Notes under the pieces: model-generated
What the model saw: the letters and a program-made list of their open reading frames with translations, nothing else
Told to the model about the DNA's origin: nothing
Database searches by the model: none
From: Escherichia phage vB_EcoM_NBG1
Sequence record: MH243438.1
Reading direction: 5' to 3' (one strand)
Length of the DNA: 64,000 nt
In this document: positions 1,090 through 52,172 of the stretch, one piece after another
Layout of the letters: every line of letters starts with the position of its first letter
Numbering within the stretch: position 1 is the stretch's first letter
Translations under genes and position numbers: made by a program

Positions 1090-1095
1090 TTTTCC

Positions 1096-4227: not shown

Positions 4228-4228
4228 A

Positions 4229-4592: not shown

Positions 4593-4793
4593 TTATTTTG
4601 ACATTTCTTCGATGTCACGACGATACCCATCACGAACTTCACGAAGAGCTTCAAGGCCACACATAGGCTCGATACCAGTAATGTGAACTTGATTAATCTG
4701 ATACTCTACATCTTCTAACTGAGCGAAAACATAACGACGTTCTGCTGCACAACCGGGTTTAGCTTTACCGAAACGTTTATTCAAAGTAGTCAT
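4593..4793 (-). CDS. hypothetical protein
   Basis: Internal ATG 4793 (MTTLNKRFGK) preceded by GGAG; cassette upstream. Confidence 0.5.
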   Translation of the reverse strand: MTTLNKRFGKAKPGCAAERRYVFAQLEDVEYQINQVHITGIEPMCGLEALREVRDGYRRDIEEMSK

Positions 4794-4873
4794 TTTTATA
4801 TCTCCATTCACTCATTTGTTTTGATAGGTCTATAGTATCAACAACTACAGACCTTGTAAACTGTTTTGTGAAA
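4794..4873 (-). promoter_or_regulatory. early promoter/stem-loop cassette
   Basis: Minus-strand: CACAAAACAGTTTACAAGGTCTGTAGTTGTTGATACTATAGACCTATCAAAACAAATGAGTGAATGGAGATATAAAAATG; GGTCT...AGACC inverted repeat. Confidence 0.55.
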
Positions 4874-5830
4874 TTATTTGAAAGGTTTTACCATATGAAA
4901 GTTTTGTTTGAAACGCTTGACGTAATCGTCGTGTCCTAAGCTTTGGTACATACTTACTACTTTGCTATAATTTTCCCAAGCGAACTCACGGAACCATCCT
5001 GATGTGATTGATGTACAGACCTTTTCAAGGGCCATCATAAAACTATCACGTGGATGGATTTTAAAGTCGTTAGGAATCTGTGAACGTTCAAGAGCTAATA
5101 CACAAGCTTCTTCATATACACCGGCTAATTTAACCATTTCTGGTAATGATTTGAACTTCTCGCGTGATGTCATAACTTCTGAGCCTTCTTTCATATAAAA
5201 CTTATAAGCAGGCTGGTCAGTTAGTGCAATGGCTTCATGAATAGTATCATGGTCATATGTATAGATGTCATCTTTAAAGAACGCACTTTTAGAAGTGTCA
5301 AGAACTGGGTGAGCATAATTCAAGGTTTCTTTCTGGCGTTTCAGCATAATTTCAGTAAGTTCATCGTTCAGTGTAACACCTTTACCACGAAGATACTGAA
5401 TATGATTCATAGTCTTTAAAAAGAATGGATTATTTTTCTTGAAACGATGAGACATCTTAATTGCAAGACATATCTCGGGAGTTGCCCAGTAAAACCCGTT
5501 CAAACGGTCTTTAGTCAAATTTTTCTTGGCGTATTTTAAAAGGTCATAAGAAGACGTGAAATCTTCAGGAGTGAGTTCACCAACTAATTCACGGACATTA
5601 GTGATTGCCGGAACAATATATGCTTCAAAATGAGTTTCGCGTCCATTATGGAAGCATTTGAAAACTTGGACGTCAGGGTTATCTTGGTGAACGTATACAC
5701 CCATCATTTGATTTTTGAATGCATTCCAAGAACATTGGTCCGCAATAAAATCCCAATCACTATTTTTGATAGCGCTAGAATCAATAAGACCATGATAGTG
5801 AAGTGCACGAGAACCAATAACTAACATCAT
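4874..5830 (-). CDS. hypothetical protein, possible nucleotidyltransferase fold
   Basis: 318 aa; N-terminal VIGSRALHYHGLIDSSAIKNSDWDFIA resembles GS...DxD of Pol-beta-type NTases but spacing is atypical; SD GAGGAA. Confidence 0.3.
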   Translation of the reverse strand: MMLVIGSRALHYHGLIDSSAIKNSDWDFIADQCSWNAFKNQMMGVYVHQDNPDVQVFKCFHNGRETHFEAYIVPAITNVRELVGELTPEDFTSSYDLLKYAKKNLTKDRLNGFYWATPEICLAIKMSHRFKKNNPFFLKTMNHIQYLRGKGVTLNDELTEIMLKRQKETLNYAHPVLDTSKSAFFKDDIYTYDHDTIHEAIALTDQPAYKFYMKEGSEVMTSREKFKSLPEMVKLAGVYEEACVLALERSQIPNDFKIHPRDSFMMALEKVCTSITSGWFREFAWENYSKVVSMYQSLGHDDYVKRFKQNFHMVKPFK

Positions 5831-5855
5831 AATAATTTCCTCGAATTTAGATTAC

Positions 5856-6095
5856 TTAAATTTCACGACATGCGATATTATATTCATCCCAGAGGTCATC
5901 ATGTGAAGCCTCTACCAATGGAACGATTGTACCGTTTATGTCTTCATTATAAGGGCAAATTGTACAGTGCGCATCTTCGAATCGGATGCCTTTGTGTTCA
6001 GATTTTTTATAACGCATATCGAATATCTTTGCAAACTTTTCACGAGTAATAGTTTTAGCAACCACTTTGGTTCCGATACTTTCGTAATAAATCAT
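5856..6095 (-). CDS. hypothetical protein
   Basis: Internal ATG 6095 (MIYYESIG) 8 nt after GGAG; contains HCTICPY; C-terminal ...NIACREI. Confidence 0.5.
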   Translation of the reverse strand: MIYYESIGTKVVAKTITREKFAKIFDMRYKKSEHKGIRFEDAHCTICPYNEDINGTIVPLVEASHDDLWDEYNIACREI

Positions 6096-6157
6096 TGTGG
6101 ACTCCATTTGTTTTGATAGGACTACTATAACATAGCCCTATCTTGTTGTAAACTGTT
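6096..6157 (-). promoter_or_regulatory. early promoter/stem-loop cassette
   Basis: Minus-strand: AACAGTTTACAACAAGATAGGGCTATGTTATAGTAGTCCTATCAAAACAAATGGAGTCCACAATG; -35 GTTTAC, -10 TATAGT, 18-nt spacer. Confidence 0.6.
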
Positions 6158-6355
6158 TTAGCAAGAATAACTAGATGATACCCAGCCTTGAACAGTGATA
6201 CTATTGTGGGATAATGAGATCGCGTCCTGGAGATTCAGACCTGCGTTATCTTCAATCCATAATGTAACTTCTTCGCGTTCTTCTGTTGCAATTTGGAACA
6301 GGTTTTCCAGAGCAGCTACTGCCGTACGTACAGCACAATCTAATTCACGAGACAT
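6158..6355 (-). CDS. small protein, paralog family with C-terminal GWVSSS..C
   Basis: 65 aa ending ...VQGWVSSSYSC; third of three tandem paralogs. Confidence 0.55.
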   Translation of the reverse strand: MSRELDCAVRTAVAALENLFQIATEEREEVTLWIEDNAGLNLQDAISLSHNSITVQGWVSSSYSC

Positions 6356-6364
6356 ATTGTTTCC

Positions 6365-6637
6365 TTAGCAAGTGTGAGAAGATGCGACCCAACCACCAGT
6401 TTCGAGGCTCAGGTTGTAGTCGTATTGGTAAACGTCAGCCCATTCAGCATAGCCGTTTTTTGTACAACGTTCAAGATCGGCTTTAAGATGTCCGGGTGAA
6501 TGATAGGTTCCACCCATACCATAAGCTGGATACAAGTCGAATGTTGTGTTTTGTTTATCAGCAATTTCTTTGGCAGCCTCAATAGCTGCATAGATTTTTG
6601 CTACAGCTTCAGCCAGTTCGGTTTGTTCTTTAGACAT
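6365..6637 (-). CDS. small protein, paralog family with C-terminal GWVASS..C
   Basis: 90 aa ending ...ETGGWVASSHTC; junction TGCTAAGGAAACAATATG to next gene. Confidence 0.55.
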   Translation of the reverse strand: MSKEQTELAEAVAKIYAAIEAAKEIADKQNTTFDLYPAYGMGGTYHSPGHLKADLERCTKNGYAEWADVYQYDYNLSLETGGWVASSHTC

Positions 6638-6646
6638 AATGATTCC

Positions 6647-6952
6647 TTAGCACAACGCAGAAGACGAAACCCAAGCACCTTCAGTAATAACGTAACCGTT
6701 ACCTTCACGCTTAACATCGCCACCATTATTTTCAATTTCATCTTTCATCCACTGGGATACGATTTCACCCTTAGGATAATAAGTACGACCACTACCATAA
6801 TCACCTACAGAAAATGATACAGCATATTGGTCTGCGATCTTTGTTGCTTCTTCTTCGATACGTTCAGCTTGATTCAGAAGTTTATAAATTGCATCTGAAG
6901 CGGATTTGGCATCATTAAACTCTGGTACTTTAATTTCAATAATCTTACTCAT
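6647..6952 (-). CDS. small protein, paralog family with C-terminal AWVSSS..C
   Basis: 101 aa ending ...TEGAWVSSSALC; junction TGCTAAGGAATCATTATG. Confidence 0.55.
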   Translation of the reverse strand: MSKIIEIKVPEFNDAKSASDAIYKLLNQAERIEEEATKIADQYAVSFSVGDYGSGRTYYPKGEIVSQWMKDEIENNGGDVKREGNGYVITEGAWVSSSALC

Positions 6953-7308
6953 TTTCTACATTCCTTAATAAAGTTTTCGATTGTTTCATTTTCACGTTTA
7001 GCTAGGAGTTCATTATAACTAATCATTTGAGAAGCGTAAACCTTTTTATTTTTCTTGTTATGGTTTATAAAATCGTAGTAAAAATAGACCACAGTACAAA
7101 ATGATGCGATGGATGCAAAGGCTTGGGTATACCGTAAGTCCTGCCATTGGTCTGTGAATCCACCGGTATTCCCTATAAATCCTAACACAACTCCGTCAAT
7201 AAGAAATCCAACTAATCCAAAGGCAAATCCCATGCCAATACTCATAATAAAAATTAGAATGTTCTCGCCGAGAGAAGGCCGAACAGTTAAGAGTTTAGGT
7301 TTTTGCAT
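6949..7308 (-). CDS. hypothetical membrane protein with C-terminal ENFIKECR tail
   Basis: Hydrophobic segments (ILIFIMSIGMGFAFGLVGFLIDGVVLGFIG; FASIASFCTVVYFYY); C-terminal ...IENFIKECRK. Confidence 0.55.
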   Translation of the reverse strand: MQKPKLLTVRPSLGENILIFIMSIGMGFAFGLVGFLIDGVVLGFIGNTGGFTDQWQDLRYTQAFASIASFCTVVYFYYDFINHNKKNKKVYASQMISYNELLAKRENETIENFIKECRK

Positions 7309-7682
7309 CTTATTTCCTTAACGAATTCCATAGCTTCTTCGTATTCGTACTTTTTAACAGCTTCGTCATACTGAGCTTGGGCTTTTGCGCACTGAACTTT
7401 CCATTCGCGTACTCGAGCTCTATAATGACGTCCTTGGTACCAATATCCCACCCAGTTAATAGGCATTAATAAAAATGGCACAATAAACGACCCGGCTATA
7501 ATAAGTAAAAACACTGCATCAGACGATATAACTTCACTAGAATCTAAAACAGCTCCTATAATCATAAAGATTAAAAATGCTAAAGCTAAAATAGGGCCAA
7601 ATAGTACTTCGTTTGGGATTAATTTACGTTTGTATTCGTATGCCCAGGGCTTAATTGGTTGATAAAGGGTTGGCTTTGACAT
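7287..7682 (-). CDS. hypothetical membrane protein with degenerate C-terminal EFVKEIRC tail
   Basis: Start moved to ATG 7682 (MSKPTLYQ); two hydrophobic segments; 3' end overlaps next gene start by 22 nt. Confidence 0.5.
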   Translation of the reverse strand: MSKPTLYQPIKPWAYEYKRKLIPNEVLFGPILALAFLIFMIIGAVLDSSEVISSDAVFLLIIAGSFIVPFLLMPINWVGYWYQGRHYRARVREWKVQCAKAQAQYDEAVKKYEYEEAMEFVKEIRCKNLNS

Positions 7683-8253
7683 ATTCTCTACATTCCATAA
7701 TAAATTGCTCAAGGATTAAATTGTTAGTGAAATTAGGACTAACAACCATAGTTTCATAAAGCGCATCAATAGCACTTAAAGCATCAACTCTCTTAAGCAA
7801 AGGCTTGCCTTCATACATAGTTTCAGAATCGACGATTAAAGTGAAGTAGTATTTTTTATTATTGACCAGAACTTCTGTATCAATATAAAACATGTTAGAC
7901 CTCAGAAGCTTATCTCTAAAACCATAATAATCTTTAGAGCGTTCGCTGATATATTCCCATTCAGTGTTTAAACAACAAACAGACCATGTAGGAGCAACGA
8001 AATCGGTGAATCTAATATCATGGTCTGCAACTAGTTTAGCAATAGCTCCGATATCATGAATCATAATACCTGGGGTTAATAAAGATTTTCTGCTATGGCT
8101 AGCCGTTTTCTCAGTAGTCTCATAAGAAGACGACCAGTACCATTTACGTCCAGTTGCAACATATCGTAATGAATCAACTAAAGACGTAGGTGGATTTACC
8201 TTATCTCGGAACTCTTCGAACATTGAGTCAATATCATTATTTTGGTTTCGCAT
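7651..8253 (-). CDS. hypothetical protein with C-terminal QFIMECRE motif
   Basis: Start at ATG 8253 (MRNQNN) 6 nt after AAGGAG; no obvious TM segment; motif 13 aa from the C-terminus. Confidence 0.5.
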   Translation of the reverse strand: MRNQNNDIDSMFEEFRDKVNPPTSLVDSLRYVATGRKWYWSSSYETTEKTASHSRKSLLTPGIMIHDIGAIAKLVADHDIRFTDFVAPTWSVCCLNTEWEYISERSKDYYGFRDKLLRSNMFYIDTEVLVNNKKYYFTLIVDSETMYEGKPLLKRVDALSAIDALYETMVVSPNFTNNLILEQFIMECREYVKANPLSTN

Positions 8254-8270
8254 GTTAACTCCTTTATTAT

Positions 8271-8294
8271 CCAAAAGGAGGACCGGAGTCCTCC
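8271..8294 (-). terminator. rho-independent terminator-like hairpin (GGAGGAC-loop-GTCCTCC then UUUU)
   Basis: 7-bp GC-rich stem followed by T-run on the minus strand, 9 nt downstream of stop at 8303 and ~18 nt before the next ATG. Confidence 0.55.
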
Positions 8295-8302
8295 GTATTA
8301 TT

Positions 8303-8896
8303 TTATTTCAAAGAGTTAATATATTCTTGTACATCAGCAGAAGTGGTTTCGACACCAGCTGGAGTGCCATTGAACGTTTCAACACGAGTCAGAGTGTCTT
8401 CGATATCAACCTTAGTCAGTGCAGCGATTTCAATTACATCATCAGCCGTAGAGATACCAAGGGCATTGGCTGCTCGAGTTTCACGAATGTATTCGAGTTT
8501 GATTGCCAGATTCTGACGAGCATCATCAAGTTCAACCACCTTACGAGCAATTTCAATTCGCATAGCGGCATACCCGTCAGCTTTTGTATTAAGTTGTTCG
8601 GCAGTTCGACGATACAGAAGACCAAGCTTAGCATGCATAGTAACATCTTGTCCTTCAGCCAGGAGCTTACGAATTTCACGTTCCTTAGAAGCGGCTTGCT
8701 TGTTCTTTTCATTAACAAGTTCGCGAATACGTTTTTCTTCATTAATAGATTTAACAGAAGCCGTTTTTAGTTCTTTGATTTGGGTAATCAACTTATCTGC
8801 AGCTGCGTTATACTGTTCTTCGACAGTCAGATTTTTAGCCATAGCAGTACCCAGTTTAGTGCGGATGAATTCAACAAGTTTCTTCAGTGTGTTCAT
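8303..8896 (-). CDS. coiled-coil protein, possibly PspA/IM30-like
   Basis: 197 aa, highly charged helical heptad-like sequence; start at ATG 8896 (MNTLKK) after AAGGT; family assignment is a guess. Confidence 0.3.
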
Positions 8897-8967
8897 ATTA
8901 TTACCTTTCAATTGGTGGTTTATTATCCAACGAGAGCATTATACTCTGCTCTCAAGAGTTTGTAAAT
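8897..8967 (-). promoter_or_regulatory. sigma70-like early promoter with stem-loop (TTTACA-N17/18-TATAAT; GAGAGCA/TGCTCTC inverted repeat around -10)
   Basis: Minus-strand: ATTTACAAACTCTTGAGAGCAGAGTATAATGCTCTCGTTGG... Confidence 0.55.
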
Positions 8968-9194
8968 TATTTTTTAATCAAATTGACATAAAACTCGGCG
9001 TCTTCCGGGTGCATGCCTTCGCAGTATTCTTCAACCATGAACTTCTTAACAGCTTCATAAGGACCACTCAGATTAAGCTCAGTTGTCCAGAACTTGGAAT
9101 CTTGGGCTGAATCGATACGAACTTCAGGGTGTCGGTTGCGAATAACTTCTTCGGTGTATTCATAATCAACGACATCAATACTAACTTTAGCCAT
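8967..9194 (-). CDS. hypothetical protein
   Basis: 75 aa; SD AGAGGAAA; cassette upstream. Confidence 0.5.
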   Translation of the reverse strand: MAKVSIDVVDYEYTEEVIRNRHPEVRIDSAQDSKFWTTELNLSGPYEAVKKFMVEEYCEGMHPEDAEFYVNLIKK

Positions 9195-9240
9195 TTTGTT
9201 TTCCTCTTGATTTGATGTGATTACTATAACATAAACTTAC
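9195..9240 (-). promoter_or_regulatory. early promoter cassette (TTTACA -35, TATAGT -10)
   Basis: Minus-strand: ATTTACATCTAAGTAAGTTTATGTTATAGTAATCACATCAAATCAAGAGGAAAACAAAATG. Confidence 0.5.
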
Positions 9241-9405
9241 TTAGATGTAAATTATTTCAACGTCACCTTTAGCTGCTTTATAACCTTCAGCCCAAGATAC
9301 AACAGAGTTTTTATCCGAGGATTCAAATTCAGGCATTGGACTTTCACCAATATTCACACAGTATGTTTCTTCATTTTCATCGAACCAAATAATTAAAGTA
9401 GTCAT
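9241..9405 (-). CDS. hypothetical small protein (54 aa), not in the ORF track
   Basis: ATG at 9405 preceded by GAGGAG; translation MTTLIIWFDENEETYCVNIGESPMPEFESSDKNSVVSWAEGYKAAKGDVEIIYI; cassette upstream. Confidence 0.45.
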   Translation of the reverse strand: MTTLIIWFDENEETYCVNIGESPMPEFESSDKNSVVSWAEGYKAAKGDVEIIYI

Positions 9406-9473
9406 TTTGTTTACTCCTCTGTAGTTGATAAGTCTATAGTATCACCGTCCTTGGTGCTTGTACATCGTTATTT
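9406..9473 (-). promoter_or_regulatory. early promoter/stem-loop cassette
   Basis: The 44-nt string tcattttgtttactcctctgtagttgataagtctatagtatcac is repeated exactly at 9402-9445 and 44981-45024. Confidence 0.55.
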
Positions 9474-9779
9474 TTAATTTTTCCAACTTAACAACTTGTA
9501 GTGTCCTTCATTCATACATGGTTTATCCCAAGAAATACTAATATATGATTCACCGTCAATAGAAGTCGCCGGGTTTTTCTCTACCGTAAGACCTTCACTT
9601 TCCAGCCATTCAATAGTATTTGCGCATAAATCGGAAGAACACCTCATCGGAAACCTGCAAGATTTTTCACCTTTAGCTGCAGTGTTATACATCTTTTCTA
9701 AAATACGCTTTTGCACGTTTTTAAAAATAGTTTCAGCAGATTCTTCAGATTTTTTATTCAGTTCAGTGTAAAGACTCAT
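9474..9779 (-). CDS. hypothetical protein
   Basis: 101 aa; SD GAGGAAAA; cassette upstream. Confidence 0.5.
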   Translation of the reverse strand: MSLYTELNKKSEESAETIFKNVQKRILEKMYNTAAKGEKSCRFPMRCSSDLCANTIEWLESEGLTVEKNPATSIDGESYISISWDKPCMNEGHYKLLSWKN

Positions 9780-9840
9780 AATATTTTCCTCATGTTTTTA
9801 TAGGTCTATAGTAACACATCTAGGGAAGAAGTAAACAACT
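9780..9840 (-). promoter_or_regulatory. early promoter/stem-loop cassette
   Basis: Minus-strand: GTTTACTTCTTCCCTAGATGTGTTACTATAGACCTATAAAAACATGAGGAAAATATTATG. Confidence 0.55.
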
Positions 9841-9868
9841 TTATGAAATATTTTTATGCCCTAGATGC

Positions 9869-9897
9869 CAAAAAGCCCCAACCTTTCGGAAGGGGCT
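9869..9897 (-). terminator. rho-independent terminator (AGCCCCUUCC-GAAA-GGUUGGGGCU then UUUUU)
   Basis: Long GC stem with GAAA tetraloop followed by U-run on the minus strand, closing the tRNA/small-ORF transcription unit. Confidence 0.6.
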
Positions 9898-9934
9898 ATG
9901 CCTTGCGGCAACCTTGTCGGGGTTCCACCTGCTA

Positions 9935-10205
9935 AGGCAAGTGTTTGTACGAAACGCCGGGATTCGAACCCGGTTATTAAGCAGTTGACGCTACTCAATA
10001 TTTTTAAAAGGCCATATCTCGACCATATCCGAACGTTCCGTCAAAAACGCTACTCGGCTTACGGCAAATATATTTCCTCGAATCGATAATTCTGTGCGCC
10101 GTTTCTGCTGTGATGTAAGGGGATATTAACAAATCGTAAAGATTTATTAAGACCAGTCCTTACTCAGGGAACATCAGTCCGACGACTTACCGGTAGCGAC
10201 CCGGC
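9935..10205 (-). ncRNA. non-coding stretch with tRNA-like T-arm (CCGGGUUCGAAUCCCGG); candidate stable small RNA or tRNA remnant
   Basis: No ORF with SD; perfect T-arm motif at ~9955-9975 but no acceptor-stem partner found; T4 encodes small stable RNAs next to its tRNAs. Confidence 0.25.
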
Positions 10206-10208
10206 TTC

Positions 10209-10553
10209 TTATTTTGGCATATCATCAATTTGCTCTCGACGCCGACGCCATAGATTAATCGCTTCATTGGCACATTCTGCGTTTGGTATATGACGGCAGT
10301 AATATAATGATTCGCGTTTCTGGAACCGATGTTGCAACGGGATTTCGTTTAAAAGGTCTTTACGGTCAAAGTATTCAAAACTAGTTAACCCAGAACGGTT
10401 TTTAATGAACTTCCAATGGCCGAATTCATTTTGAACATAGATGTAATCTGCATGTTGGTATAACAAATTAATCAATCGGTCTGAAATAACTGTATCATTT
10501 TCGTTAAAATAAAACGTTAAATCATGAACTACCAAATAAATATTGCCTTTCAT
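10209..10553 (-). CDS. hypothetical protein
   Basis: Start moved to ATG 10553 (MKGNIY) after GAGGA, so the gene no longer overlaps the tRNA. Confidence 0.5.
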   Translation of the reverse strand: MKGNIYLVVHDLTFYFNENDTVISDRLINLLYQHADYIYVQNEFGHWKFIKNRSGLTSFEYFDRKDLLNEIPLQHRFQKRESLYYCRHIPNAECANEAINLWRRRREQIDDMPK

Positions 10554-10571
10554 ATTTTCCTCACTTAAAGT

Positions 10572-10648
10572 TGGCCGAGACAGAAGGATTCTAACCTTCA
10601 ACCTACGGATTAGAATTCCGTTGCTCTATACAATTGAGCTATGCCTCG
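10572..10648 (-). tRNA. tRNA-Arg (anticodon UCU)
   Basis: Hand-folded cloverleaf: 7-bp acceptor stem (one GU), D-stem GCUC/GAGC, anticodon stem ACGGA/UCCGU with loop AUUCUAA, T-arm GAAGG-UUAGAAU-CCUUC, encoded CCA. Confidence 0.8.
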
Positions 10649-10654
10649 AATATA

Positions 10655-10728
10655 TGACCCAGACCAGATTCGAACTGGTAACCTTTCCCTTATGAGGGGA
10701 CTGCTGCTAACCATTGAGCTACAGGGCC
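10655..10728 (-). tRNA. tRNA with CAU anticodon (Met, or Ile if lysidine-modified)
   Basis: Acceptor stem 6/7 bp, perfect T-arm ACCAG-UUCGAAU-CUGGU, loop CUCAUAA; D-arm and anticodon stem weaker (3-4 bp); no encoded CCA. Confidence 0.6.
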
Positions 10729-10805
10729 TAAATAACTTTCTATTATGAAAGGCACTTTAGAGCACCTTTGGTAATAGAGGGTAGATTAATAATAACACAT
10801 AATTC

Positions 10806-11321
10806 TTAAAGCAAATCAATCATTTTAACAGTCGGCAAAACAATTTCTTCTTCAATATAAGCGAATTCAACACGTTCAACTACACGCAAGAAATCATAGT
10901 CGTAGTATTCGGAAGCATAGCCAAGAATATCAATAAGTCCTTGAGATATCTCATCGCCTTTCACAAAGAACAGGTCGAATACGCGGGCTTCGTCTTCTTC
11001 AGATTTATCACCAAGGTCTACTTCGATACCAAAGACCTTTTTAATAAATTCCGGTTGGAGTTGGTCTGAGAACAGTCCTTCAACCAAGTATTCATAGATT
11101 AAAAGCGAGCAATCACTGAATGGTGTATTACCACAATAACGTTCGGCTTTAGTGCTAGAATGACGACTCTTAAATTTCTTCAAGAGATATTTAAACTGTT
11201 GGAGCTCATGCTCTTCTACACCAAATAATGTTTTGGTTTTATAGTTGTCGCCGTCATTTTCCCAAGTAGTGACATCAATTACGTAACCCTTAGGAATTGT
11301 ACTGCCTAAACAAATATTCAT
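10806..11321 (-). CDS. hypothetical protein
   Basis: 171 aa ORF with ATG start, immediately upstream of the tRNAs. Confidence 0.5.
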   Translation of the reverse strand: MNICLGSTIPKGYVIDVTTWENDGDNYKTKTLFGVEEHELQQFKYLLKKFKSRHSSTKAERYCGNTPFSDCSLLIYEYLVEGLFSDQLQPEFIKKVFGIEVDLGDKSEEDEARVFDLFFVKGDEISQGLIDILGYASEYYDYDFLRVVERVEFAYIEEEIVLPTVKMIDLL

Positions 11322-11325
11322 TTAC

Positions 11326-11616
11326 TCACCGTACCATATTAATGTAATTATATTCAATGCAACGTAATTTCAAAGGATTCTTGAAAATATCATATTCAAG
11401 AGGGCCTTTTTCTGTTTCAATAAAGAAATCAAAGTTAACTGTGTTAAATTTATCGTCTTCACAAAATAATTTAACCTGTGAAGATGAACGGTCGATATAA
11501 ACCTTTTCAACCTCAAAGTTGGTCAGAATACCGTAGTCATCGACTAGTGCTTTAGCTGCACGTTGATCGCTTTCGTATCCGTTCTCAATAGATGACACTT
11601 TAGCATAAAGAATCAT
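11326..11616 (-). CDS. hypothetical protein
   Basis: 96 aa; ATGA overlap with upstream gene stop. Confidence 0.5.
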   Translation of the reverse strand: MILYAKVSSIENGYESDQRAAKALVDDYGILTNFEVEKVYIDRSSSQVKLFCEDDKFNTVNFDFFIETEKGPLEYDIFKNPLKLRCIEYNYINMVR

Positions 11617-11975
11617 GAGTGTTCCACCACTTCAAAGGTATGAGCATCAACAATATGATACCAGTCAAAATTTTCTTCTGCGTTTTTATAAATTTCACGA
11701 AGAGCCTCAACAGTTTTTCCTGTAGCAACAAGGTCGTCAATACCGCCAAGAGGATAACAGTCGTAACCAGCAAACAGAAGGAAATTAACAGTTTCTGTAG
11801 GTTCTGGATGCAGAACACCGTTATCGTCTACCACTTCAAAGAAAGTGTAAGAAGGAGTACAAGTTTTAATCCAAGCCCATGCTTGAGCTGCTGAATCAAA
11901 TGGTCTGCGTATCAAACGACAATCAGGGTCTTTAGAAGGATTTGCTTCAAAATCAGCATATACGTGATATTTCAT
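11613..11975 (-). CDS. hypothetical protein
   Basis: Start at ATG 11975 (MKYHVY) after AGGTGA; coupled to upstream gene (TAAaATG). Confidence 0.5.
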   Translation of the reverse strand: MKYHVYADFEANPSKDPDCRLIRRPFDSAAQAWAWIKTCTPSYTFFEVVDDNGVLHPEPTETVNFLLFAGYDCYPLGGIDDLVATGKTVEALREIYKNAEENFDWYHIVDAHTFEVVEHS

Positions 11976-11976
11976 T

Positions 11977-12162
11977 TTACTCACCTTTTGCAATTTTATC
12001 CATAACGATAGCGATTAAACCGATTAGAAATGCTACTACCAATGAGATAGAATTTTCTGTTGTTGTCAGTAGTCCACAAATGAATCCTACAAACATCGAA
12101 AAACTAAAAGCCATTGAAGCAATTACTACAGCAACATTACGAATCAGTTCAGCGCGTTTCAT
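11977..12162 (-). CDS. hypothetical small membrane protein
   Basis: Start at ATG 12162 (MKRAELIRN) after GGAG; two hydrophobic segments. Confidence 0.5.
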   Translation of the reverse strand: MKRAELIRNVAVVIASMAFSFSMFVGFICGLLTTTENSISLVVAFLIGLIAIVMDKIAKGE

Positions 12163-12232
12163 TTTATTTCTCCATTTACTCATTTGTTTTGATAGGACTA
12201 CTATAACATAGTCCTATCAGCATGTAAACTAC
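12163..12232 (-). promoter_or_regulatory. early promoter/stem-loop cassette with 9-bp inverted repeat ATAGGACTA/TAGTCCTAT
   Basis: Minus-strand: GTTTACATGCTGATAGGACTATGTTATAGTAGTCCTATCAAAACAAATGAGTAAATGGAGAAATAAAATG. Confidence 0.6.
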
Positions 12233-12520
12233 TTACAGAAGAGTTTTTGCAATAATTTTAAGCTGAGCTACAGAAATATGCTTAGCTTTAAACAGTGCAG
12301 TCTCTTCGGCCGGAGAGATAACAATAGTAGCGCCGTCTTTCTTAGCAGACCATCCATCCCCTAAGTAAACAGTACCTTTTACTTCTTCACCGTCAACCAG
12401 ACTAATCATTGGTTTACCCTCACGTCCTTTATTTGCTTTAATAACTTCGGAAGTAAGGGTTGCTTCGGTCAGAGTAGAAACGTTAGCAACAGGTGATATA
12501 AATTCTTTATAGGTTTTCAT
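12233..12520 (-). CDS. internal-protein-like small protein (MKTYKEFISP...), in the T4 ipI position
   Basis: Capsid-targeting-type N-terminus; lies next to 57B as ipI does in T4; body not recognised. Confidence 0.55.
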   Translation of the reverse strand: MKTYKEFISPVANVSTLTEATLTSEVIKANKGREGKPMISLVDGEEVKGTVYLGDGWSAKKDGATIVISPAEETALFKAKHISVAQLKIIAKTLL

Positions 12521-12597
12521 TTTATTTCCTTGAGGTTGTTTATTTGATAGGATGATAGTAACACACCATCATCCTTATGTAAACTGTTTTGTGAAAA
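12521..12597 (-). promoter_or_regulatory. early promoter/stem-loop cassette (AGGATGAT/ATCATCCT inverted repeat)
   Basis: Minus-strand: CACAAAACAGTTTACATAAGGATGATGGTGTGTTACTATCATCCTATCAAATAAACAACCTCAAGGAAATAAAATG. Confidence 0.55.
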
Positions 12598-43093: not shown

Positions 43094-44662
43094 ATGACTA
43101 CTATCAAAACTAAAGCTCAGCTCGTAGACAAATGGAAAGAACTGCTGGAAGGTGAAGGCCTGCCGGAAATCGCTAATAGCAAGCAGGCTATTATCGCTAA
43201 AATCTTCGAAAACCAGGAAAAAGATTTCGAAGTATCCCCTGAATATAAAGACGAGAAAATCGCTCAGGCATTTGGTTCTTTCTTGACCGAAGCTGAAATT
43301 GGTGGTGACCATGGTTATAATGCTCAGAACATCGCAGCGGGTCAAACCTCTGGTGCAGTAACCCAAATTGGGCCGGCAGTTATGGGTATGGTTCGTCGTG
43401 CTATTCCTAATCTGATCGCTTTTGATATTTGTGGTGTTCAGCCTATGAACAGCCCGACCGGTCAGGTATTTGCTCTCCGTGCAGTATATGGTAAAGACCC
43501 TATCGCTGCTGGCGCTAAAGAAGCTTTCCATCCGATGTATGCTCCAGATGCGATGTTCTCTGGTCAGGGTGCTGCTAAGAAATTCCCAGCTCTGGCTGCT
43601 GACACTACTACTGTTGTAGGTGATATCTATACTCACTTCTTCCAAGAAACTGGTACTGTATATCTGCAAGCTTCTGCTGTCGTAACACTTGATTCTGGTG
43701 CAACTGATGCAGCTAAATTAGATGCAGAAGTTAAGAAACAAATGGAAGCTGGTGCACTGGTAGAAATCGCTGAAGGTATGGCTACTTCTATCGCTGAACT
43801 CCAGGAAGGTTTCAACGGTTCTACCGATAACCCATGGAATGAAATGGGCTTCCGTATCGATAAACAAGTTATTGAAGCTAAATCTCGCCAGCTGAAAGCT
43901 GCTTACTCTATCGAATTAGCACAAGACCTCCGTGCAGTACACGGTATGGATGCTGATGCTGAACTGAGCGGTATTCTTGCTACTGAAATTATGCTGGAAA
44001 TCAACCGTGAAGTTGTTGATTGGATTAACTACTCGGCACAGGTTGGTAAATCTGGTATGACCCTGACTCCGGGTTCTAAAGCTGGTGTATTTGACTTCCA
44101 GGACCCGATTGATATCCGTGGTGCTCGTTGGGCCGGTGAAAGCTTTAAATCTCTGTTGTTCCAGATTGATAAAGAAGCAGTTGAAATTGCTCGTCAAACC
44201 GGTCGTGGTGAAGGTAACTTCATTATCGCTTCCCGTAACGTAGTTAACGTACTGGCTTCAGTTGATACTGGTATTTCTTACGCTGCACAGGGTCTGGCTT
44301 CTGGTTTTAATACCGACACTACTAAGTCTGTATTTGCCGGTGTACTTGGTGGTAAATACCGCGTATACATCGACCAGTATGCTAAACAGGATTACTTCAC
44401 CGTTGGTTACAAAGGCGCTAACGAAATGGATGCAGGTATTTACTATGCTCCTTACGTTGCACTTACCCCACTGCGTGGTTCTGATCCTAAGAACTTCCAG
44501 CCGGTAATGGGCTTTAAAACTCGTTACGGTATCGGTGTTAACCCGTTTGCTGAAAGTTCCCTGCAGGCTCCAGGTGCTCGCATCCAGTCCGGTATGCCGT
44601 CTATCCTGAACAGCCTTGGTAAGAACGCTTACTTCCGCCGTGTATATGTAAAAGGCATCTAA
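43094..44662 (+). CDS. 23: major capsid protein gp23
   Basis: 522 aa, near-identical to recalled T4 gp23. Confidence 0.95.
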   Translation: MTTIKTKAQLVDKWKELLEGEGLPEIANSKQAIIAKIFENQEKDFEVSPEYKDEKIAQAFGSFLTEAEIGGDHGYNAQNIAAGQTSGAVTQIGPAVMGMVRRAIPNLIAFDICGVQPMNSPTGQVFALRAVYGKDPIAAGAKEAFHPMYAPDAMFSGQGAAKKFPALAADTTTVVGDIYTHFFQETGTVYLQASAVVTLDSGATDAAKLDAEVKKQMEAGALVEIAEGMATSIAELQEGFNGSTDNPWNEMGFRIDKQVIEAKSRQLKAAYSIELAQDLRAVHGMDADAELSGILATEIMLEINREVVDWINYSAQVGKSGMTLTPGSKAGVFDFQDPIDIRGARWAGESFKSLLFQIDKEAVEIARQTGRGEGNFIIASRNVVNVLASVDTGISYAAQGLASGFNTDTTKSVFAGVLGGKYRVYIDQYAKQDYFTVGYKGANEMDAGIYYAPYVALTPLRGSDPKNFQPVMGFKTRYGIGVNPFAESSLQAPGARIQSGMPSILNSLGKNAYFRRVYVKGI

Positions 44663-44686
44663 TCTTAATTGATTAAATCTTATTTT

Positions 44687-44711
44687 GGGAGACTTCGGTC
44701 TCCCATTTTTG
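44687..44711 (+). terminator. rho-independent terminator GGGAGAC-uucg-GUCUCCC then AUUUUUGG
   Basis: 7-bp stem with UUCG tetraloop and T-run after the gp23 stop. Confidence 0.7.
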
Positions 44712-44714
44712 GTT

Positions 44715-44984
44715 TTATTTCTGTGCAATTTCGATGTAAGTTTTCAAAATATTTTGCCAATTAGGCATACCTTCTTGGACATATGCTGGAGAACCGTCTT
44801 TGTTTTTGAATGATGCAAGTTTATCAGTGGCCCAATAACCTTTAGCTCGAGCTTCAGAATCAACTTTCATCCATACTTTGTTGAAGGCATTACCATTAAC
44901 TTTTGCACCGTATTTTTCTACTAACTTAACTGCTTCAGCTTCCAGAACTTTTAAAGTATCTCGTAAGAAACGTGCTTTAGTCAT
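44715..44984 (-). CDS. hypothetical protein (89 aa) between genes 23 and 24
   Basis: ATG with SD GAGGAG; driven by a cassette copy; occupies the slot where T4 carries segD. Confidence 0.55.
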   Translation of the reverse strand: MTKARFLRDTLKVLEAEAVKLVEKYGAKVNGNAFNKVWMKVDSEARAKGYWATDKLASFKNKDGSPAYVQEGMPNWQNILKTYIEIAQK

Positions 44985-45044
44985 TTTGTTTACTCCTCTG
45001 TAGTTGATAAGTCTATAGTATCACATACCAAATACGTTGTAAAC
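44985..45044 (-). promoter_or_regulatory. early promoter/stem-loop cassette (exact 44-nt repeat of the 9402-9445 copy)
   Basis: Identical 44-nt string; -35 GTTTAC at ~45039-45044. Confidence 0.55.
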
Positions 45045-45050
45045 AATCTT

Positions 45051-45058
45051 TATAAATA
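45051..45058 (+). promoter_or_regulatory. late promoter TATAAATA for gene 24
   Basis: Exact TATAAATA ~28 nt upstream of the gp24 ATG, 7 nt from the minus-strand -35. Confidence 0.65.
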
Positions 45059-45085
45059 ATCTATATCACATAAGGAAAAAATGCA

Positions 45086-46369
45086 ATGAGTAAAATCCAA
45101 AAATTATTGCGTGAATCTACAACGTCTACTAGCAACTCAATCGGTCGCCCAAATCTCGTTGCTTTGACTCGCGCTACGACTAAATTAATATATTCTGACA
45201 TTGTAGCAACACAAAGAACTAATCAACCTGTTGCTGCTTTTTATGGTATCAAATATCTTAACCCAGACAACGAATTAACATTTAAAACTGGTGCTACTTA
45301 TGCAGGTGAAGCTGGATATGTAGACCGAGAAAAAATTACCGAACTCACAGAAGAATCAAAAGTCACATTAAATAAAGGCGATTTTTTCAAATATAATAAT
45401 ATCGTCTATAAAGTGTTAGAAGATACGCCATTTGCAGATATTCAAGAAAGTGATCTAGAATTAGCTCTTCAGATTGCAGTCGTTCATTTAAAGGTACGGT
45501 TATTTTCAGATGCAGCGGTAACAAGCAAATTTGAAAGCTCTGGTAGCGAAATTTCTGATGCAAGATTCCAGATTAATAAATGGCAAACTTCAGTCAAATC
45601 TCGTAAACTTAAAACCGGCCTCACGGTTGAATTAGCGCAAGATTTGGAAGCGAATGGATTTGATGCCCCTAACTTCTTAGAAGATTTGCTTGCTACTGAA
45701 ATGGCTGATGAAATTAATAAAGATATTCTTCAGTCTTTAATTACTGTATCGAAACGTTATAAAGTTACTGGAATTACTGATACCGGATTTATTGACTTGA
45801 GCTATGCGTCTGCTCCAGAAGCAGGTCGTTCATTATACCGAATGGTATGCGAAATGGTTTCGCATATCCAAAAAGAGTCAACTTATACTGCAACGTTTTG
45901 CGTAGCCTCAGCTCGTGCAGCTGCTATTCTTGCTGCTTCTGGTTGGTTAAAACATAAGCCAGAAGATGACAAGTATCTTTCACAAAATGCTTATGGATTC
46001 TTGGCAAATGGATTACCTCTTTACTGCGATACCAACAGTCCGTTAGATTATGTTATTGTGGGTGTTGTAGAAAATATCGGCGAAAAAGAAATTGTAGGGT
46101 CCATCTTTTATGCTCCATACACTGAAGGAGTAGATTTAGATGACCCGGAACATGTTGGTGCATTTAAAGTTGTAGTTGATCCAGAAAGCTTGCAACCGTC
46201 TATCGGATTATTGGTTAGATATGCTTTATCAGCAAATCCTTACACAGTAGCAAAAGACGAAAAAGAAGCGAGAGTAATTGATGGCGGGGACATGGATAAA
46301 ATGGCAGGACGTTCAGACTTGTCTGTTTTACTCGGTGTTAAATTGCCTAAAATTATTATAGATGAATAA
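45086..46369 (+). CDS. 24: head vertex protein gp24
   Basis: 427 aa, same as T4 gp24; gp23 paralog. Confidence 0.93.
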   Translation: MSKIQKLLRESTTSTSNSIGRPNLVALTRATTKLIYSDIVATQRTNQPVAAFYGIKYLNPDNELTFKTGATYAGEAGYVDREKITELTEESKVTLNKGDFFKYNNIVYKVLEDTPFADIQESDLELALQIAVVHLKVRLFSDAAVTSKFESSGSEISDARFQINKWQTSVKSRKLKTGLTVELAQDLEANGFDAPNFLEDLLATEMADEINKDILQSLITVSKRYKVTGITDTGFIDLSYASAPEAGRSLYRMVCEMVSHIQKESTYTATFCVASARAAAILAASGWLKHKPEDDKYLSQNAYGFLANGLPLYCDTNSPLDYVIVGVVENIGEKEIVGSIFYAPYTEGVDLDDPEHVGAFKVVVDPESLQPSIGLLVRYALSANPYTVAKDEKEARVIDGGDMDKMAGRSDLSVLLGVKLPKIIIDE

Positions 46370-46400: not shown

Positions 46401-47399
46401 TTATGATACTAATTCAATCCATGCAGGACGCAGAACATCTTGCACCATTCGGACTAATTCTTTCTTAACAAGATTCGGATTATCGGATGATGTTAATACA
46501 ATACCTTCACGAGAAGTTTCTTCCAGAATATCTTGAACAGTCAATCCCATCACTTTGCCAAAATCTTTTGGCGTTACAGTCCCAATCTTAGAAATCACAT
46601 TATTAACACGATTTAATGTAACATAACAAGCTAGAACATCAAGCAAGTTTTTGTCAATTTCGGTTAATGGAACCTGAGTTTTAATAGGCTTATCAGACTT
46701 TTTCTTTTCACTGAATTTAGAGTTCTTGCACTTAATAGCTACACGAGTACCGTTTGGCAGCCATTTAGGGAAACAAGGCTTCAGAACATAACCTTCTGCT
46801 GTATTATCGCCAATAACATTAGCATCAAATACACAATTATTTGCTTCTACAAGGTCTTCTGACGCAGTAGCATTATAAGCGGCTAAGACGGAATCAAGGT
46901 CATTTGGAATCGTGATAAGAGCATCGAATGTTCCACGACCGAGCATTGGTGCCATTTTAAAACCGAATTCATTACAGAAATCTTGCATTTCGTAATCGGT
47001 CAAATACGTATTATCACCACTTTCTGTATTGATAAGGATATCGAACACATAAAAATCTTTTTCACCGTAGTCAACACCTTTCTGGATTCCACCACCAGCG
47101 AATTCACCGAATACTTGATATGATACGGCTCGAGCTGTGTACATGAATTCCTGAACGGCTTTAATAGCTTTATCATACTTCTTAAGTACGATTTCATAAC
47201 CATAAAAATCTTCTGCTGGAAGAATAGGGCCTGTGCGCTTGGCGCATGTGACGTTGTCACGTTCAATTATTAACGAGAAGTTAGTCCCATGGATTTTCTC
47301 ACGTGCTACCCAAACACCAGTAGTCAAACCATTAGTGTAGAGTTTTTCAATAACCTTAGAGTTGTAGTGGTTTTCAAGACTGCTGTATTTCTTAAACAT
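46401..47399 (-). CDS. rnlB: RNA ligase 2
   Basis: 332 aa, near-identical to recalled T4 Rnl2 ([15 protein letters not shown]...EKIHGTNFS). Confidence 0.93.
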
Positions 47400-49202: not shown

Positions 49203-49871
49203 TTATTTTAATGTTACGAAAGAAGAATTACGAGTTTCACGAATTAGAACTGATCCATCGCGATTAATATAATAAATTAAGCTAAATAATGTTTGGTGAG
49301 CAGAAGCGTGCACAAAACTGGTTGGGCGAGATTTCCAATCTGGGGTTTCGGCTATCCATTGATAAATCCACCAAGGAACAGTAACATATCCTGGGCCTTT
49401 GCCTAATTTAATGAGTGTAGGACTAAAATTTTCAGGCAGAACAAATTTTACTTCTTTATTTACCTCTGGCTCAGGTTCTTTTTCAGATTCAACAACCTGA
49501 GTAATTGCTTCTTCGAATTTATCATGGTCGAATTCTTTTTCTTGTTCGACAACTTCTAATACTTCAGCTTGTTCTGTTGGAGAATCAAACAACAGAATAG
49601 CTTCTTCTTTAACTTCTTCGTTGGTGAAATTAACACCGTCCACATCATCTGCGGCAGTAATTAAATCGGTGATAGATAATCCATCAGTTTCAGGTAATGG
49701 TTCATCAGCCAGTGCGTTAAGAGCTTCTTCGATATCAATAACAATATTATCGAATGATTTTGTTTTCTTAACACTAATGCCAAATTGTTCCGCATATTCA
49801 AACAGTTTAGCTTTGGCTTCCTTTTTATCAGAAAGAGCACGTAACTCTTCAATATAGTCTTTATCGATCAT
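49203..49871 (-). CDS. inh: prohead protease inhibitor Inh
   Basis: 222 aa, position next to hoc. Confidence 0.8.
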   Translation of the reverse strand: MIDKDYIEELRALSDKKEAKAKLFEYAEQFGISVKKTKSFDNIVIDIEEALNALADEPLPETDGLSITDLITAADDVDGVNFTNEEVKEEAILLFDSPTEQAEVLEVVEQEKEFDHDKFEEAITQVVESEKEPEPEVNKEVKFVLPENFSPTLIKLGKGPGYVTVPWWIYQWIAETPDWKSRPTSFVHASAHQTLFSLIYYINRDGSVLIRETRNSSFVTLK

Positions 49872-49884
49872 GATATTTCCTCAT

Positions 49885-49892
49885 TATAAATA
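49885..49892 (+). promoter_or_regulatory. late promoter TATAAATA upstream of the segE-like gene
   Basis: TATAAATATAACTATA, a 16-nt match to the gene 20 late promoter. Confidence 0.55.
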
Positions 49893-49920
49893 TAACTATA
49901 TTTATTACATGGAAAAGAGT

Positions 49921-50652
49921 ATGTATCACTTTGTTTATGAGACCGTAAATTTAATCAATGGTAAAAAGTACATTGGCAAACATTCTACAGAAAATTTAAA
50001 TGATTCGTATCTAGGGTCAGGTGTTGCCTTAAATCGCGCTATCAAAAAATACGGAGAAGAATCATTTAAACGTTCAATAATTAAACAATTTGAAACTTCC
50101 GCTGAAGCTTTAGAATACGAAGCTCAGTTAGTAACAGAGGATTTGGTCAAATCTAACGAGTATTATAATATGCGCCAAGGCGGTGAAGGTGGAAGGTATA
50201 AGTACACCGAAGCTGATAAGACTAAAATGTCTAATAGTGCTAAAGAACGAATAAAGAGGCTTGGTCATAATCTTTTAGGAAAACACAGATCGGAAGAAAC
50301 AAAAAGAAAACTATCTGAAACAAATAAACGTCGATACTCTGAAGACCCAACATGCCACGGGCGGTATGGTACAGGAAAGCCAAAGATTGATAAAATTAAA
50401 GGTCCTAAAAATCCTACAACTCTAAATAAAATTTGTGTTAACAACGGTAAAGAAAACAGATTTATATCAGCTGAGGACCCGATGCCTGAAGGATTTGTAA
50501 AAGGAATGGTCCAACTTAATAGAAAATCTAGAAAGGGCTGTGAAGTAAAACCTACGACCACCGGCAGAATATGGGTAAATAACGGGGCTATAAATAAATT
50601 AGTAAATCCGTTATCCATCCCAGATGGATATGTTAAAGGCCGTTTAAGGTAA
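49921..50652 (+). CDS. segE: GIY-YIG homing endonuclease (segE-like)
   Basis: N-terminal YHFVYETVNLINGKKYIGKHS GIY-YIG motif; position between inh and uvsW as T4 segE; start ambiguous (49909 or 49921). Confidence 0.7.
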   Translation: MYHFVYETVNLINGKKYIGKHSTENLNDSYLGSGVALNRAIKKYGEESFKRSIIKQFETSAEALEYEAQLVTEDLVKSNEYYNMRQGGEGGRYKYTEADKTKMSNSAKERIKRLGHNLLGKHRSEETKRKLSETNKRRYSEDPTCHGRYGTGKPKIDKIKGPKNPTTLNKICVNNGKENRFISAEDPMPEGFVKGMVQLNRKSRKGCEVKPTTTGRIWVNNGAINKLVNPLSIPDGYVKGRLR

Positions 50653-50657
50653 TTATT

Positions 50658-52172
50658 ATGACAGATATTAAAGTACATTTTCATGATTTTAGCCATGTAA
50701 GAATTGAATGCGACGAAAGCGTGTTCTATGAATTACGCGACTTTTTTAGCTTTGAAGCCGATGGGTACAAATTCAACCCGCGTTACAAATATGGGAACTG
50801 GGATGGTAGAATTAGACTTTTAGATTACAACCGTTTGTTACCATATGGACTTGTAGGACAAATAAAAAAGTTCTGTAGCAATATGAGTTATTCTGTATGG
50901 ATTGACCCTAAAATCTTTGAGACCGAAGACCTTACCAGGGAAGATTTTGACGCATGGCTTTCTAAACAAGAAATTTATTCAGGCAACGCCAAAATCGAAC
51001 CACATTGGTATCAAAAAGATGCAGTATATGAAGGACTAGTTAATCGTCGTCGAATTTTAAACCTTCCGACATCAGCAGGTAAATCACTAATCCAAGCACT
51101 TTTAGCTCGGTATTATCTAGAGAACTATGAAGGTAAAATTCTCATTATCGTCCCTACAACAGCATTGACAACCCAGATGGCTAATGATTTTGTTGATTAT
51201 CGCTTGTTTAGTCATTCGATGATTAAGAAAATTGGCGGTGGTGCTGATAAAGCAGACAAATCTAAAAACGACGCTCCAATTATTGTTGGCACATGGCAAA
51301 CGGTAGTTAAGCAGCCTAAAGAATGGTTCTCTCAGTTCGGTATGATGATGAACGATGAATGCCACTTAGCAACAGGCAAAAGTATTTCTTCAATCATCGC
51401 AGGATTAAATAATTGTATGTTTAAATTCGGTTTATCTGGCTCATTAAGAGACGGAAAGGCCAATGTAATGCAGTACGTAGGTATGTTCGGCGAAATCTTC
51501 CGTCCTGTTAGCACGTCTAAATTAATGGAAGATGGACAGGTAACTGAGCTTAAGATTAATAGTATTTTCCTTCGTTATCCAGACGAATTCGCCACCAAAT
51601 TAAAAGGTAAAACATACCAAGAAGAAGTTAAAATTATTACCGGACTAAAACGACGTACAAAGTGGATTGCTCAACTTTCAGTCAAATTGGCTAAGAAAGA
51701 CGAGAACGCCTTTGTAATGTTTAAACACGTTACACACGGTAAAGAAATATTTGAAGCTATTAAAGAGCTTGGATACGAAAAAGTTTATTACGTATCAGGC
51801 GAAGTTGATACTGAAACACGTAACGCGCTTAAAGTCATGGCAGAAAATGGTAAAGGCATTATTATTGTCGCATCATATGGAGTATTCTCTACCGGTATTT
51901 CAGTCAAGAATCTTCATCATGTTATTTTTGCCCATGGTGTTAAATCAAAAATTATCGTACTTCAAACAGTAGGTCGTGTGCTTCGTAAGCATGGTTCTAA
52001 AGCTGTTGCTACAGTTTGGGATCTCATCGATGACGCAGGTGTAAAACCTAAATCATTAAATACTAAAAAGAAGTATACTCATCTTAATTACTTGTTAAAA
52101 CACGGTATTGATCGTATCCAACGTTACGCTGATGAGAAATTTAACTATGTAATGAAAACAATTAATTTATAA
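50658..52172 (+). CDS. uvsW: DNA/RNA helicase UvsW
   Basis: 504 aa; near-identical N-terminus to recalled T4 UvsW (DIKVHFHDFSHVRI...). Confidence 0.93.
   Translation: MTDIKVHFHDFSHVRIECDESVFYELRDFFSFEADGYKFNPRYKYGNWDGRIRLLDYNRLLPYGLVGQIKKFCSNMSYSVWIDPKIFETEDLTREDFDAWLSKQEIYSGNAKIEPHWYQKDAVYEGLVNRRRILNLPTSAGKSLIQALLARYYLENYEGKILIIVPTTALTTQMANDFVDYRLFSHSMIKKIGGGADKADKSKNDAPIIVGTWQTVVKQPKEWFSQFGMMMNDECHLATGKSISSIIAGLNNCMFKFGLSGSLRDGKANVMQYVGMFGEIFRPVSTSKLMEDGQVTELKINSIFLRYPDEFATKLKGKTYQEEVKIITGLKRRTKWIAQLSVKLAKKDENAFVMFKHVTHGKEIFEAIKELGYEKVYYVSGEVDTETRNALKVMAENGKGIIIVASYGVFSTGISVKNLHHVIFAHGVKSKIIVLQTVGRVLRKHGSKAVATVWDLIDDAGVKPKSLNTKKKYTHLNYLLKHGIDRIQRYADEKFNYVMKTINL

Follow-up and report, generated by a model that had tools for sequence, protein, structure and literature searches.

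A conserved small gene antisense to the capsid genes in the slot between genes 23 and 24 of Mosigvirus phages

Results

Organization of the 23-24 locus

The DNA analysed, hereafter the window, is a stretch of 64,000 nucleotides from Escherichia phage vB_EcoM_NBG1 (MH243438.1), a member of the genus Mosigvirus (RB69 group). Around the slot between the two capsid genes, the local order is gene 23 (+), an 89-aa ORF (−), gene 24 (+) and rnlB (−). Gene 23, encoding the 522-aa major capsid protein and annotated in 99%-identical records, occupies positions 43094-44662 (+) and forms the left border of the slot, while gene 24, encoding the capsid vertex protein (45086-46369, +), forms the right border and is followed by rnlB (46401-47399, −). 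As proposed in an initial annotation of this DNA, an ORF of 89 aa is found in the slot on the minus strand. It starts with ATG, lies at 44715-44984 and is preceded by a Shine-Dalgarno (SD) sequence, AGGAG (44993-44997, −), 8 nt 5' of the start codon. Many Escherichia and Shigella phages, among them the Mosigvirus records vB_Eco_F27 and PhAPEC2, match about 1.1 kb around the slot at 99% identity. The ORF is a conserved small gene that is already listed as a hypothetical protein in the annotations of many related phages, with annotated copies in more than 200 GenBank records. An early promoter, a late promoter and terminators are likewise already annotated at this locus in the record of phage vB_EcoM_SA79RD.

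Gene 23 is followed by an intrinsic terminator (44686-44715, +), formed by the hairpin TGGGAGAC-TTCG-GTCTCCCA (44686-44705) and a T-tract. Folding of the hairpin gave −18.1 kcal/mol (z −4.4) on the plus strand and −15 kcal/mol (z −4.8) on the minus strand. A terminator scan returned a call on the plus strand alone; on the minus strand the hairpin is followed by AAAAUAAG, with no U-tract. JS98, VR7 and T4 have a hairpin in the corresponding position; JS98 and T4 likewise have no minus-strand U-tract, and VR7 has U-tracts on both sides. Since the minus-strand hairpin of the window is not followed by a U-tract, early transcripts may run antisense into gene 23 or be trimmed to the hairpin. At the other border of the slot, gene 24 occurs once in the window, 04086 and the metagenomic lineage L016, and as two tandem copies in JS98, in VR7 and in two metagenomic lineages (L004 1-2399, L005 1-2395, L012 337-2901, L014 338-2897); this duplication did not correlate with the presence of the 89-aa gene.

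Conservation and synteny of the 89-aa gene

A profile match to phrog_6003 (E 2.1e-45) spans the whole 89-aa protein, aligning residues 1-89 with positions 1-90 of the 90 in the profile, and places it in the family of JS98 orf173 and VR7ORF190c. A tblastn search found 240 matching phage records, 238 of which covered at least 80% of the query. About 120 of them were Mosigvirus copies, mostly 95-100% identical, and another 120 or so, from Dhakavirus (JS98 orf173) and Gaprivervirus (VR7ORF190c), were 30-38% identical. Profile searches with the family returned solely proteins of about 84-93 aa from T-even-like contigs. Invariant positions in the alignment, which spans family members as little as 30-38% identical, were M1, K3, F6, L21, N30-G31-N32-A33, N35, A45, W51 and Q70. 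Codon alignments showed saturated synonymous sites (pS 0.56-0.84) together with pN values of 0.21-0.48, and the sole unsaturated pair, JS98 and 04086, gave a dN/dS of 0.14. On these sequence grounds, the 89-aa ORF is a genuine protein-coding gene. Its GC3 is 24%, the same as in gene 24, and in composition the gene thus fits its surroundings. One 90-aa phage protein, P0006 (contig ERZ27245996 k123_278436), carries the label 'NADPH-dependent curcumin reductase CurA' and is evidently mis-annotated.

All orthologues that could be placed lie between gp23 and gp24 in antisense orientation: those of JS98, VR7 and 04086 and those of four metagenomic lineages, whose proteins are 71% (L012), 70% (L014), 62% (L016) and 34% (L017) identical to that of the window. 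Orthologues only 30-38% identical thus occupy the same slot across three genera and four metagenomic lineages, which identifies the gene as an old resident of the locus and not as a recent cassette insertion. Family, slot, antisense orientation, the divergent early/late promoter junction and the hairpin at the end of gp23 are common to JS98 orf173, VR7ORF190c and RB69ORF188c-189c. Nothing essential distinguishes the window copy from the known family: it is the standard Mosigvirus allele, its protein being 100% identical to the copies of many records (e.g. AV110 and APCEc01).

The exception to this synteny lies outside the subfamily, in Acinetobacter phage ABPH49 (MH533020, Vequintavirinae; L008 3495-3761), where the family member sits among small hypothetical ORFs on the same strand. 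The ABPH49 protein is 61% identical to the family member P0021 and about 34% identical to the window protein. Its presence in an unrelated myovirus subfamily indicates that the gene is not functionally tied to the head genes and that it has moved horizontally at least once. In addition, two phages harbour interrupted copies. The RB69 reference (NC_004928 109291-109531; L011 6292-6532) has a +1 and a −1 frameshift and a patch of substitutions in the gene, which is annotated in two fragments (ORF188c, ORF189c). Its leader departs from the 47-nt element described below at 3 positions. Phage mogra has a split copy. The broken RB69 copy could reflect decay or an old sequencing error. Together, the frameshifted and split copies indicate that the gene is dispensable, at least in laboratory propagation. 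In a literature search we found neither a transcriptome nor a functional study of this ORF, and no phage for which its transcript, its 5' end or its protein has been measured.

These data also bear on the idea that the locus chiefly makes a regulatory RNA, antisense to the 3' end of gene 23 (or to the leader of gene 24), with the ORF being incidental. Read-through into gene 23 is plausible, given that no minus-strand U-tract is found in the window, JS98 or T4. However, the conservation at the protein level, the saturated synonymous sites and the conserved GGAG of the SD show selection on the peptide, VR7 does have a minus-strand U-tract, and most T-even phages have an empty slot with no antisense promoter. 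Moreover, early promoters of T4 are shut off before late mRNA appears (PMC2988021). We therefore consider a regulatory RNA as the main product very unlikely.

Early and late promoters at the junction

The initial annotation had placed a GTTTAC −35 at 45039-45044 and a late TATAAATA box at 45051-45058, and both were found at these positions. The former belongs to a predicted T4-type sigma-70 early promoter (45015-45044, −), supported by a consensus scan, by a cross-lineage footprint and by the SA79RD annotation, which is made up of the −35 GTTTAC (45044-45039), a TGn (45023-45021) and the −10 TACTAT (45020-45015). The scan of the slot described it as TTTACA-17-TACTAT with an extended −10 (TG present), 18 nt lying between GTTTAC and TACTAT. 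Read along the minus strand, the region consists of TATTTATA-AAGATT-GTTTAC-N14-GTGA-TACTAT, the leader, AGGAG, 8 nt and the ATG, and transcription of the 89-aa gene is predicted to start near A45008. All the sequence features of a T4-type early promoter are therefore present: a GTTTAC −35, a spacer of about 17-18 nt with TGn, a TAnnnT −10 and an A/T-rich upstream tract. The pattern GTTTAC-N17-19-TAYTAT occurs 7 times in the window, always on the minus (early-gene) strand, against an expectation of 0.15, and for a 66-nt pattern spanning promoter and leader zero chance matches are expected.

On the plus strand, the TATAAATA box (45051-45058) constitutes the late promoter of gene 24. It is located 27 nt 5' of the gene-24 ATG, within the distance of about 25-30 nt from the start codon that characterizes late genes, and is kept in all relatives. 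The proximity of both signals reported in the initial annotation stands, although the 7 nt given there is an end-to-start count: six bases (45045-45050) lie between the late box and the early −35. Its description of the early and late signals as interleaved was overstated, as the two promoters are arranged back-to-back without overlap. A −35 paired so tightly with TATAAATA has essentially no second instance in the window; the one further match to a relaxed pattern is the looser GTAAAT-N8-TATAAATA at 50575. Viewed from the minus strand, TATAAATA stands where the early promoter would have an A/T-rich UP-like element. As T4 early promoters have been described as UP/−35/TGn/−10 promoters (PMC2988021), the late box may double as such an element.

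The upstream regions of nine lineages, the T4 segD slot included, were then aligned. The elements TATTTATAAA..(G)TTTACA and gTGtTAyTAT were kept across the alignment, whereas the 14-nt core of the spacer and the leader vary freely, a contrast that we read as the footprint of functional −35 and −10 elements. The GGAG core of the SD was kept in all nine slot leaders, including that of T4 segD. The late box and the −35 are 6 nt apart in seven of the lineages; in L017 and T4 the distance is 5 nt.

The 47-nt repeat and the early leaders

The sequence preceding the 89-aa ORF had been described as an exact repeat of 44 nt; the exactness holds, but the repeat is 47 nt long (44978-45024 = 9399-9445). 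The copy in the slot (44978-45024, −) comprises the extended −10, a predicted 24-nt 5' UTR, the SD and ATGACTA, and the second copy (9399-9445, −) is the leader of a 54-aa e.7-like early ORF (9241-9405, −). The position of this ORF matches that of an unnamed gene between e.6 and e.8 in RB6. Together with its neighbours at 8967-9194 and 9474-9779, it makes up a series of tiny early ORFs in the e.6-e.8 region (54, 75 and 101 aa, all on the minus strand), every one of which is preceded by a promoter-leader module of its own.

The consensus G(A/T)TACTATAGaCCTATCAAAACA...GGAG...ATG (GWTACTATAGaCCTATCAAAACA..GGAG) is common to all early leaders of the window, which include the repeat families D1 and D2. 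This consensus downstream of the −10 was observed on the minus strand across 777-12585 and 44978-45047, and some early leaders have a GATAGG...CCTATC inverted repeat across the −10. The two 47-nt copies, both of family D2, are 100% identical, compared with 62% for the other D2 copies, and judging from the sequences the exact pair is an extreme case of this phage-wide leader consensus. Both copies of the 47-mer are present in about 100 records (418 places in 315 records). In the orthologous slots of the closest non-Mosigvirus lineages, L016 and L017, the leaders differ; that of L017 shares the 3' half of the 47-mer, and the RB6 e.7 leader shares TATAGACTTATCAA alone, which is the 5' half. These differences indicate that the 47-nt identity arose within the Mosigvirus lineage, most likely by recombination or gene conversion between early leaders and without transposition of the ORF. 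As the orthologues each have their own diverged leader, the gene must long predate this Mosigvirus-specific homogenisation. Codon 2 (ACT) was considered as a clue to the direction of conversion and failed; L017 has ATGACTAAA without the 47-nt leader.

Repeated promoter-leader modules have been described as PeSLs, promoter-early stem-loop cassettes (Arbiol 2010, Comeau 2014). Measured against the published definition of these cassettes (PMC4122927), the slot module shows the A/T-rich tract, the sigma-70-like early promoter, the SD and the start codon, repeated in the genome before unrelated small ORFs, and it adjoins an indel-prone site. It differs from PeSLs in lying inside the core structural block, where they are reportedly rare, and in that the identical part of the repeat begins only at the −10 box. 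As to the stem-loop upstream of the promoter, no inverted repeat was found in 45045-45110, and folding gave z-scores of −0.43 and +0.75 at the two 47-nt copies. A flanking pair of repeats was not found either: the gp23 terminator is all that lies downstream of the ORF, and the other exact copy is 35.6 kb away. Since both copies are direct repeats separated by essential genes, a crossover between them would not be viable.

It could be argued that the gene is a recent arrival, a mobile promoter-gene cassette of the PeSL type that entered the late cluster by recombination at the 47-nt element. The exact repeat shared with another early gene and the polymorphism of the slot among relatives agree with this, shuffling of this kind has been described for PeSLs (PMC4122927), and the homologue in the unrelated Vequintavirinae phage implies at least one move. 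Nevertheless, the syntenic orthologues of 30-38% identity with different leaders imply that the insertion is ancient, the leader identity having arisen secondarily. Both copies lack an upstream stem-loop, no second repeat follows the ORF, a crossover between the two distant direct repeats would be lethal, and the GC3 equals that of the neighbours. Recent insertion of a cassette is thus unlikely. Of the 'cassette-driven' accessory gene in the segD slot proposed initially, the accessory gene behind an early-type promoter stands, and a cassette-driven insertion is not supported, given the old syntenic orthologues and their diverged leaders. The term cassette fits the shared promoter-leader; it is no evidence on how the ORF reached the slot.

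Occupants of the slot and comparison with segD

Comparing the 23-24 region across T-even genomes, a check suggested in the initial annotation, revealed empty slots, segD, the 89-aa gene and a different endonuclease. The statement that T4 carries segD between genes 23 and 24 was confirmed: T4, T6 and some others have segD in the slot, on the minus strand, and 53 of 923 matching records cover it. T2 and most Tequatrovirus phages have an empty slot of 83 nt, containing the terminator hairpin and TATAAATA alone, and the slot is also empty in Jiaodavirus KpV477, Winklervirus CHI14 and Moonvirus CF1. In Pseudotevenvirus RB16 (NC_014467 135773-136411; L020 2239-2877), the slot holds a homing endonuclease gene on the plus strand, which adds another independent occupant. 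The slot thus has at least four states and is a recurrent insertion point; empty, the most widespread state, is probably also the ancestral one.

The initial annotation had itself raised the possibility that the 89-aa ORF is a degraded segD fragment, and a remnant of segD or of another homing endonuclease would be in keeping with the location of T4 segD in the same slot and orientation, with the endonuclease gene of RB16, also in the slot, and with a seg-like gene elsewhere in the window (49870-50652). BLASTP of the 89-aa ORF against SegD, a single comparison, yielded only a 17-aa match (E 0.022), tblastn of SegD gave no match in 44663-45085, and neither a GIY-YIG motif nor the Pfam GIY-YIG domain was found in the ORF. 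Against such decay stands, moreover, a full-length conserved family under purifying selection, so that we dismiss a segD remnant with near certainty.

The seg-like gene just mentioned is a 260-aa ORF (49870-50652, +) flanked by inh (49203-49871, −) and uvsW (50658-52172, +). Its similarity to the N-terminal 90 residues of T4 SegD (45.6% identity, E 5e-22) identifies it as a GIY-YIG seg-like gene; it occupies the slot of T4 segE and is absent from the close relative SA79RD.

Two different endonuclease genes using the slot, and the alternation of occupied and empty states among close relatives, might also suggest that occupancy itself is selected, the insert destroying a SegD-like empty-site target and so shielding the capsid-gene region in mixed infections. 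This would leave the purifying selection at the amino-acid level, and the homologue outside the slot, unexplained, and we regard it as very improbable.

T4 segD and the 89-aa gene share the slot, the antisense orientation, the GGAG SD and the end at the gp23 terminator hairpin, and in both cases a sigma-70-type promoter abuts the gene-24 TATAAATA, in T4 at 5 nt. They differ in the product, since SegD (223 aa, with a GIY-YIG domain) is not related to the 89-aa protein, and in the −35, ATTTAC in T4 versus GTTTAC in the window. The putative T4 promoter (NC_000866 about 107253-107281, minus strand; L003 2754-2782) reads TTTACA-17-TATTAT with TG; it is the best sigma-70-like site of that region (10/12 matches) and is homologous in position to the early promoter of the window. 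DNA likeness between the T4 and window slots is confined to the junction of promoter and gene-24 leader (45 nt, 80%), and only about 12 extra nt beyond the homologous gene-24 leader would speak for a possible shared origin of both promoters. According to a 2010 review, no segD-specific promoter could be found and its transcript levels are probably vanishingly low (PMC2988022). In the supplements of a 2022 time-resolved omics study of T4, segD RNA is classed as early and its protein as middle, with SegD peptides quantified (PMC9697503). This classing supports an early use of the slot, although the early RNA could come from read-through from promoters on the rnlB side instead of the proximal site.

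Structure prediction and database searches

An AlphaFold2 model built from an alignment of 14 family sequences (pLDDT 89, pTM 0.76) predicted an alpha-alpha-beta-beta-alpha arrangement, with helices at residues 3-25, 31-48 and 76-88 and a beta-hairpin at 56-60/66-70. In the model, the NGNA motif is placed in the loop and the start of helix 2, and W51 and Q70 flank the hairpin. All 14 members are basic (pI 9.2-9.9, net charge +2.6 to +7.6).

Searches of Pfam, NCBIfam and PDB sequences returned sub-threshold noise alone, such as a C2-domain chain (E 0.026). DUF4859 (Pfam) was discarded, with 17.9 bits against a gathering cut-off of 22.6 and matches in 2 of the 14 members. Foldseek with the model against the PDB gave nothing below E 0.49, and the sole return of a structure search of BFVD was a member of the family. 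When 1.84 billion cluster representatives were searched exhaustively with the profile, nine proteins were retrieved, about six of them genuine family members. Among the others, P0020 is a chimeric contig, and the large Ig-repeat proteins P0022 (E 1e-15) and P0024 (E 5e-7) were rejected: local hmmsearch resolved them into 9-11 weak matches of 2-12 bits each in identical tandem Big_2/filamin repeats, and such summed weak matches, which are also at odds with the helical model, are artefacts.

Discussion

The feature between genes 23 and 24 is ordinary T-even architecture built from known kinds of parts. We conclude, with a probability of roughly 0.7, that the accessory gene in the slot is genuine and has long resided there, that it runs antisense to the late capsid genes and that it is expressed early. 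We propose that host sigma-70 polymerase would fire immediately after infection from the strong promoter composed of the A/T tract, GTTTAC, TGn and TACTAT, and that the leader of about 24 nt with its GGAG SD would direct translation of the 89-aa basic protein. The early mRNA would stop at the gp23 terminator hairpin or read through it. Early and late promoters would use the same 60 bp or so at different times and, owing to this timing, would not compete. The 47-nt identity of the leader would have come from gene conversion or recombination between early leaders in the Mosigvirus lineage.

As for the function of the protein, we suggest with low confidence that it may be a non-essential host-directed factor which serves take-over or counter-defence and has a host macromolecule as binding partner, possibly a nucleic acid given the charge of the protein. 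The suggestion draws on the size, the charge, the early-type promoter, a divergence faster than that of the neighbouring capsid genes, the patchy distribution and the dispensability. Since no relative was found by sequence or fold, it is made solely by class analogy with small T-even early proteins (AsiA, Arn, Dmd, MotB and the AV110 early proteins), which the 89-aa protein resembles in size, early-type promoter and dispensability, as well as in a patchy distribution and a divergence that is rapid compared with adjacent core genes, but to which it shows no homology or fold similarity. A screen of AV110 early proteins selected its candidates by homology to T4 early proteins (bioRxiv 10.64898/2026.09.14.751387). 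T4 has no homologue of the 89-aa ORF, carrying segD there instead, so the ORF was missed in that screen despite an identical copy in AV110.

A bolder reading, which we hold to be rather doubtful, is that the protein is the founding member of an uncharacterised fold family of early effectors and that the conserved back-to-back promoter junction serves as a reusable 'expression socket' also used by segD. If so, effectors that are, for instance, nucleic-acid-binding or defence-neutralising would have been long kept in three genera of coliphages at a fixed expression site between the capsid genes, and T4 segD would have an early promoter of its own that has been overlooked.

On the whole, the finding clarifies more than it surprises. 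As a by-product, T4 segD, promoterless according to the 2010 review, has a good sigma-70-type site at the homologous position. In three genera, the occupant of the 23-24 slot is one old, fast-evolving, basic small protein without known relatives, which screens for early genes based on homology to T4 overlook. Should it be proven to act in host take-over or against host defences, the repertoire of such factors would gain a new fold.
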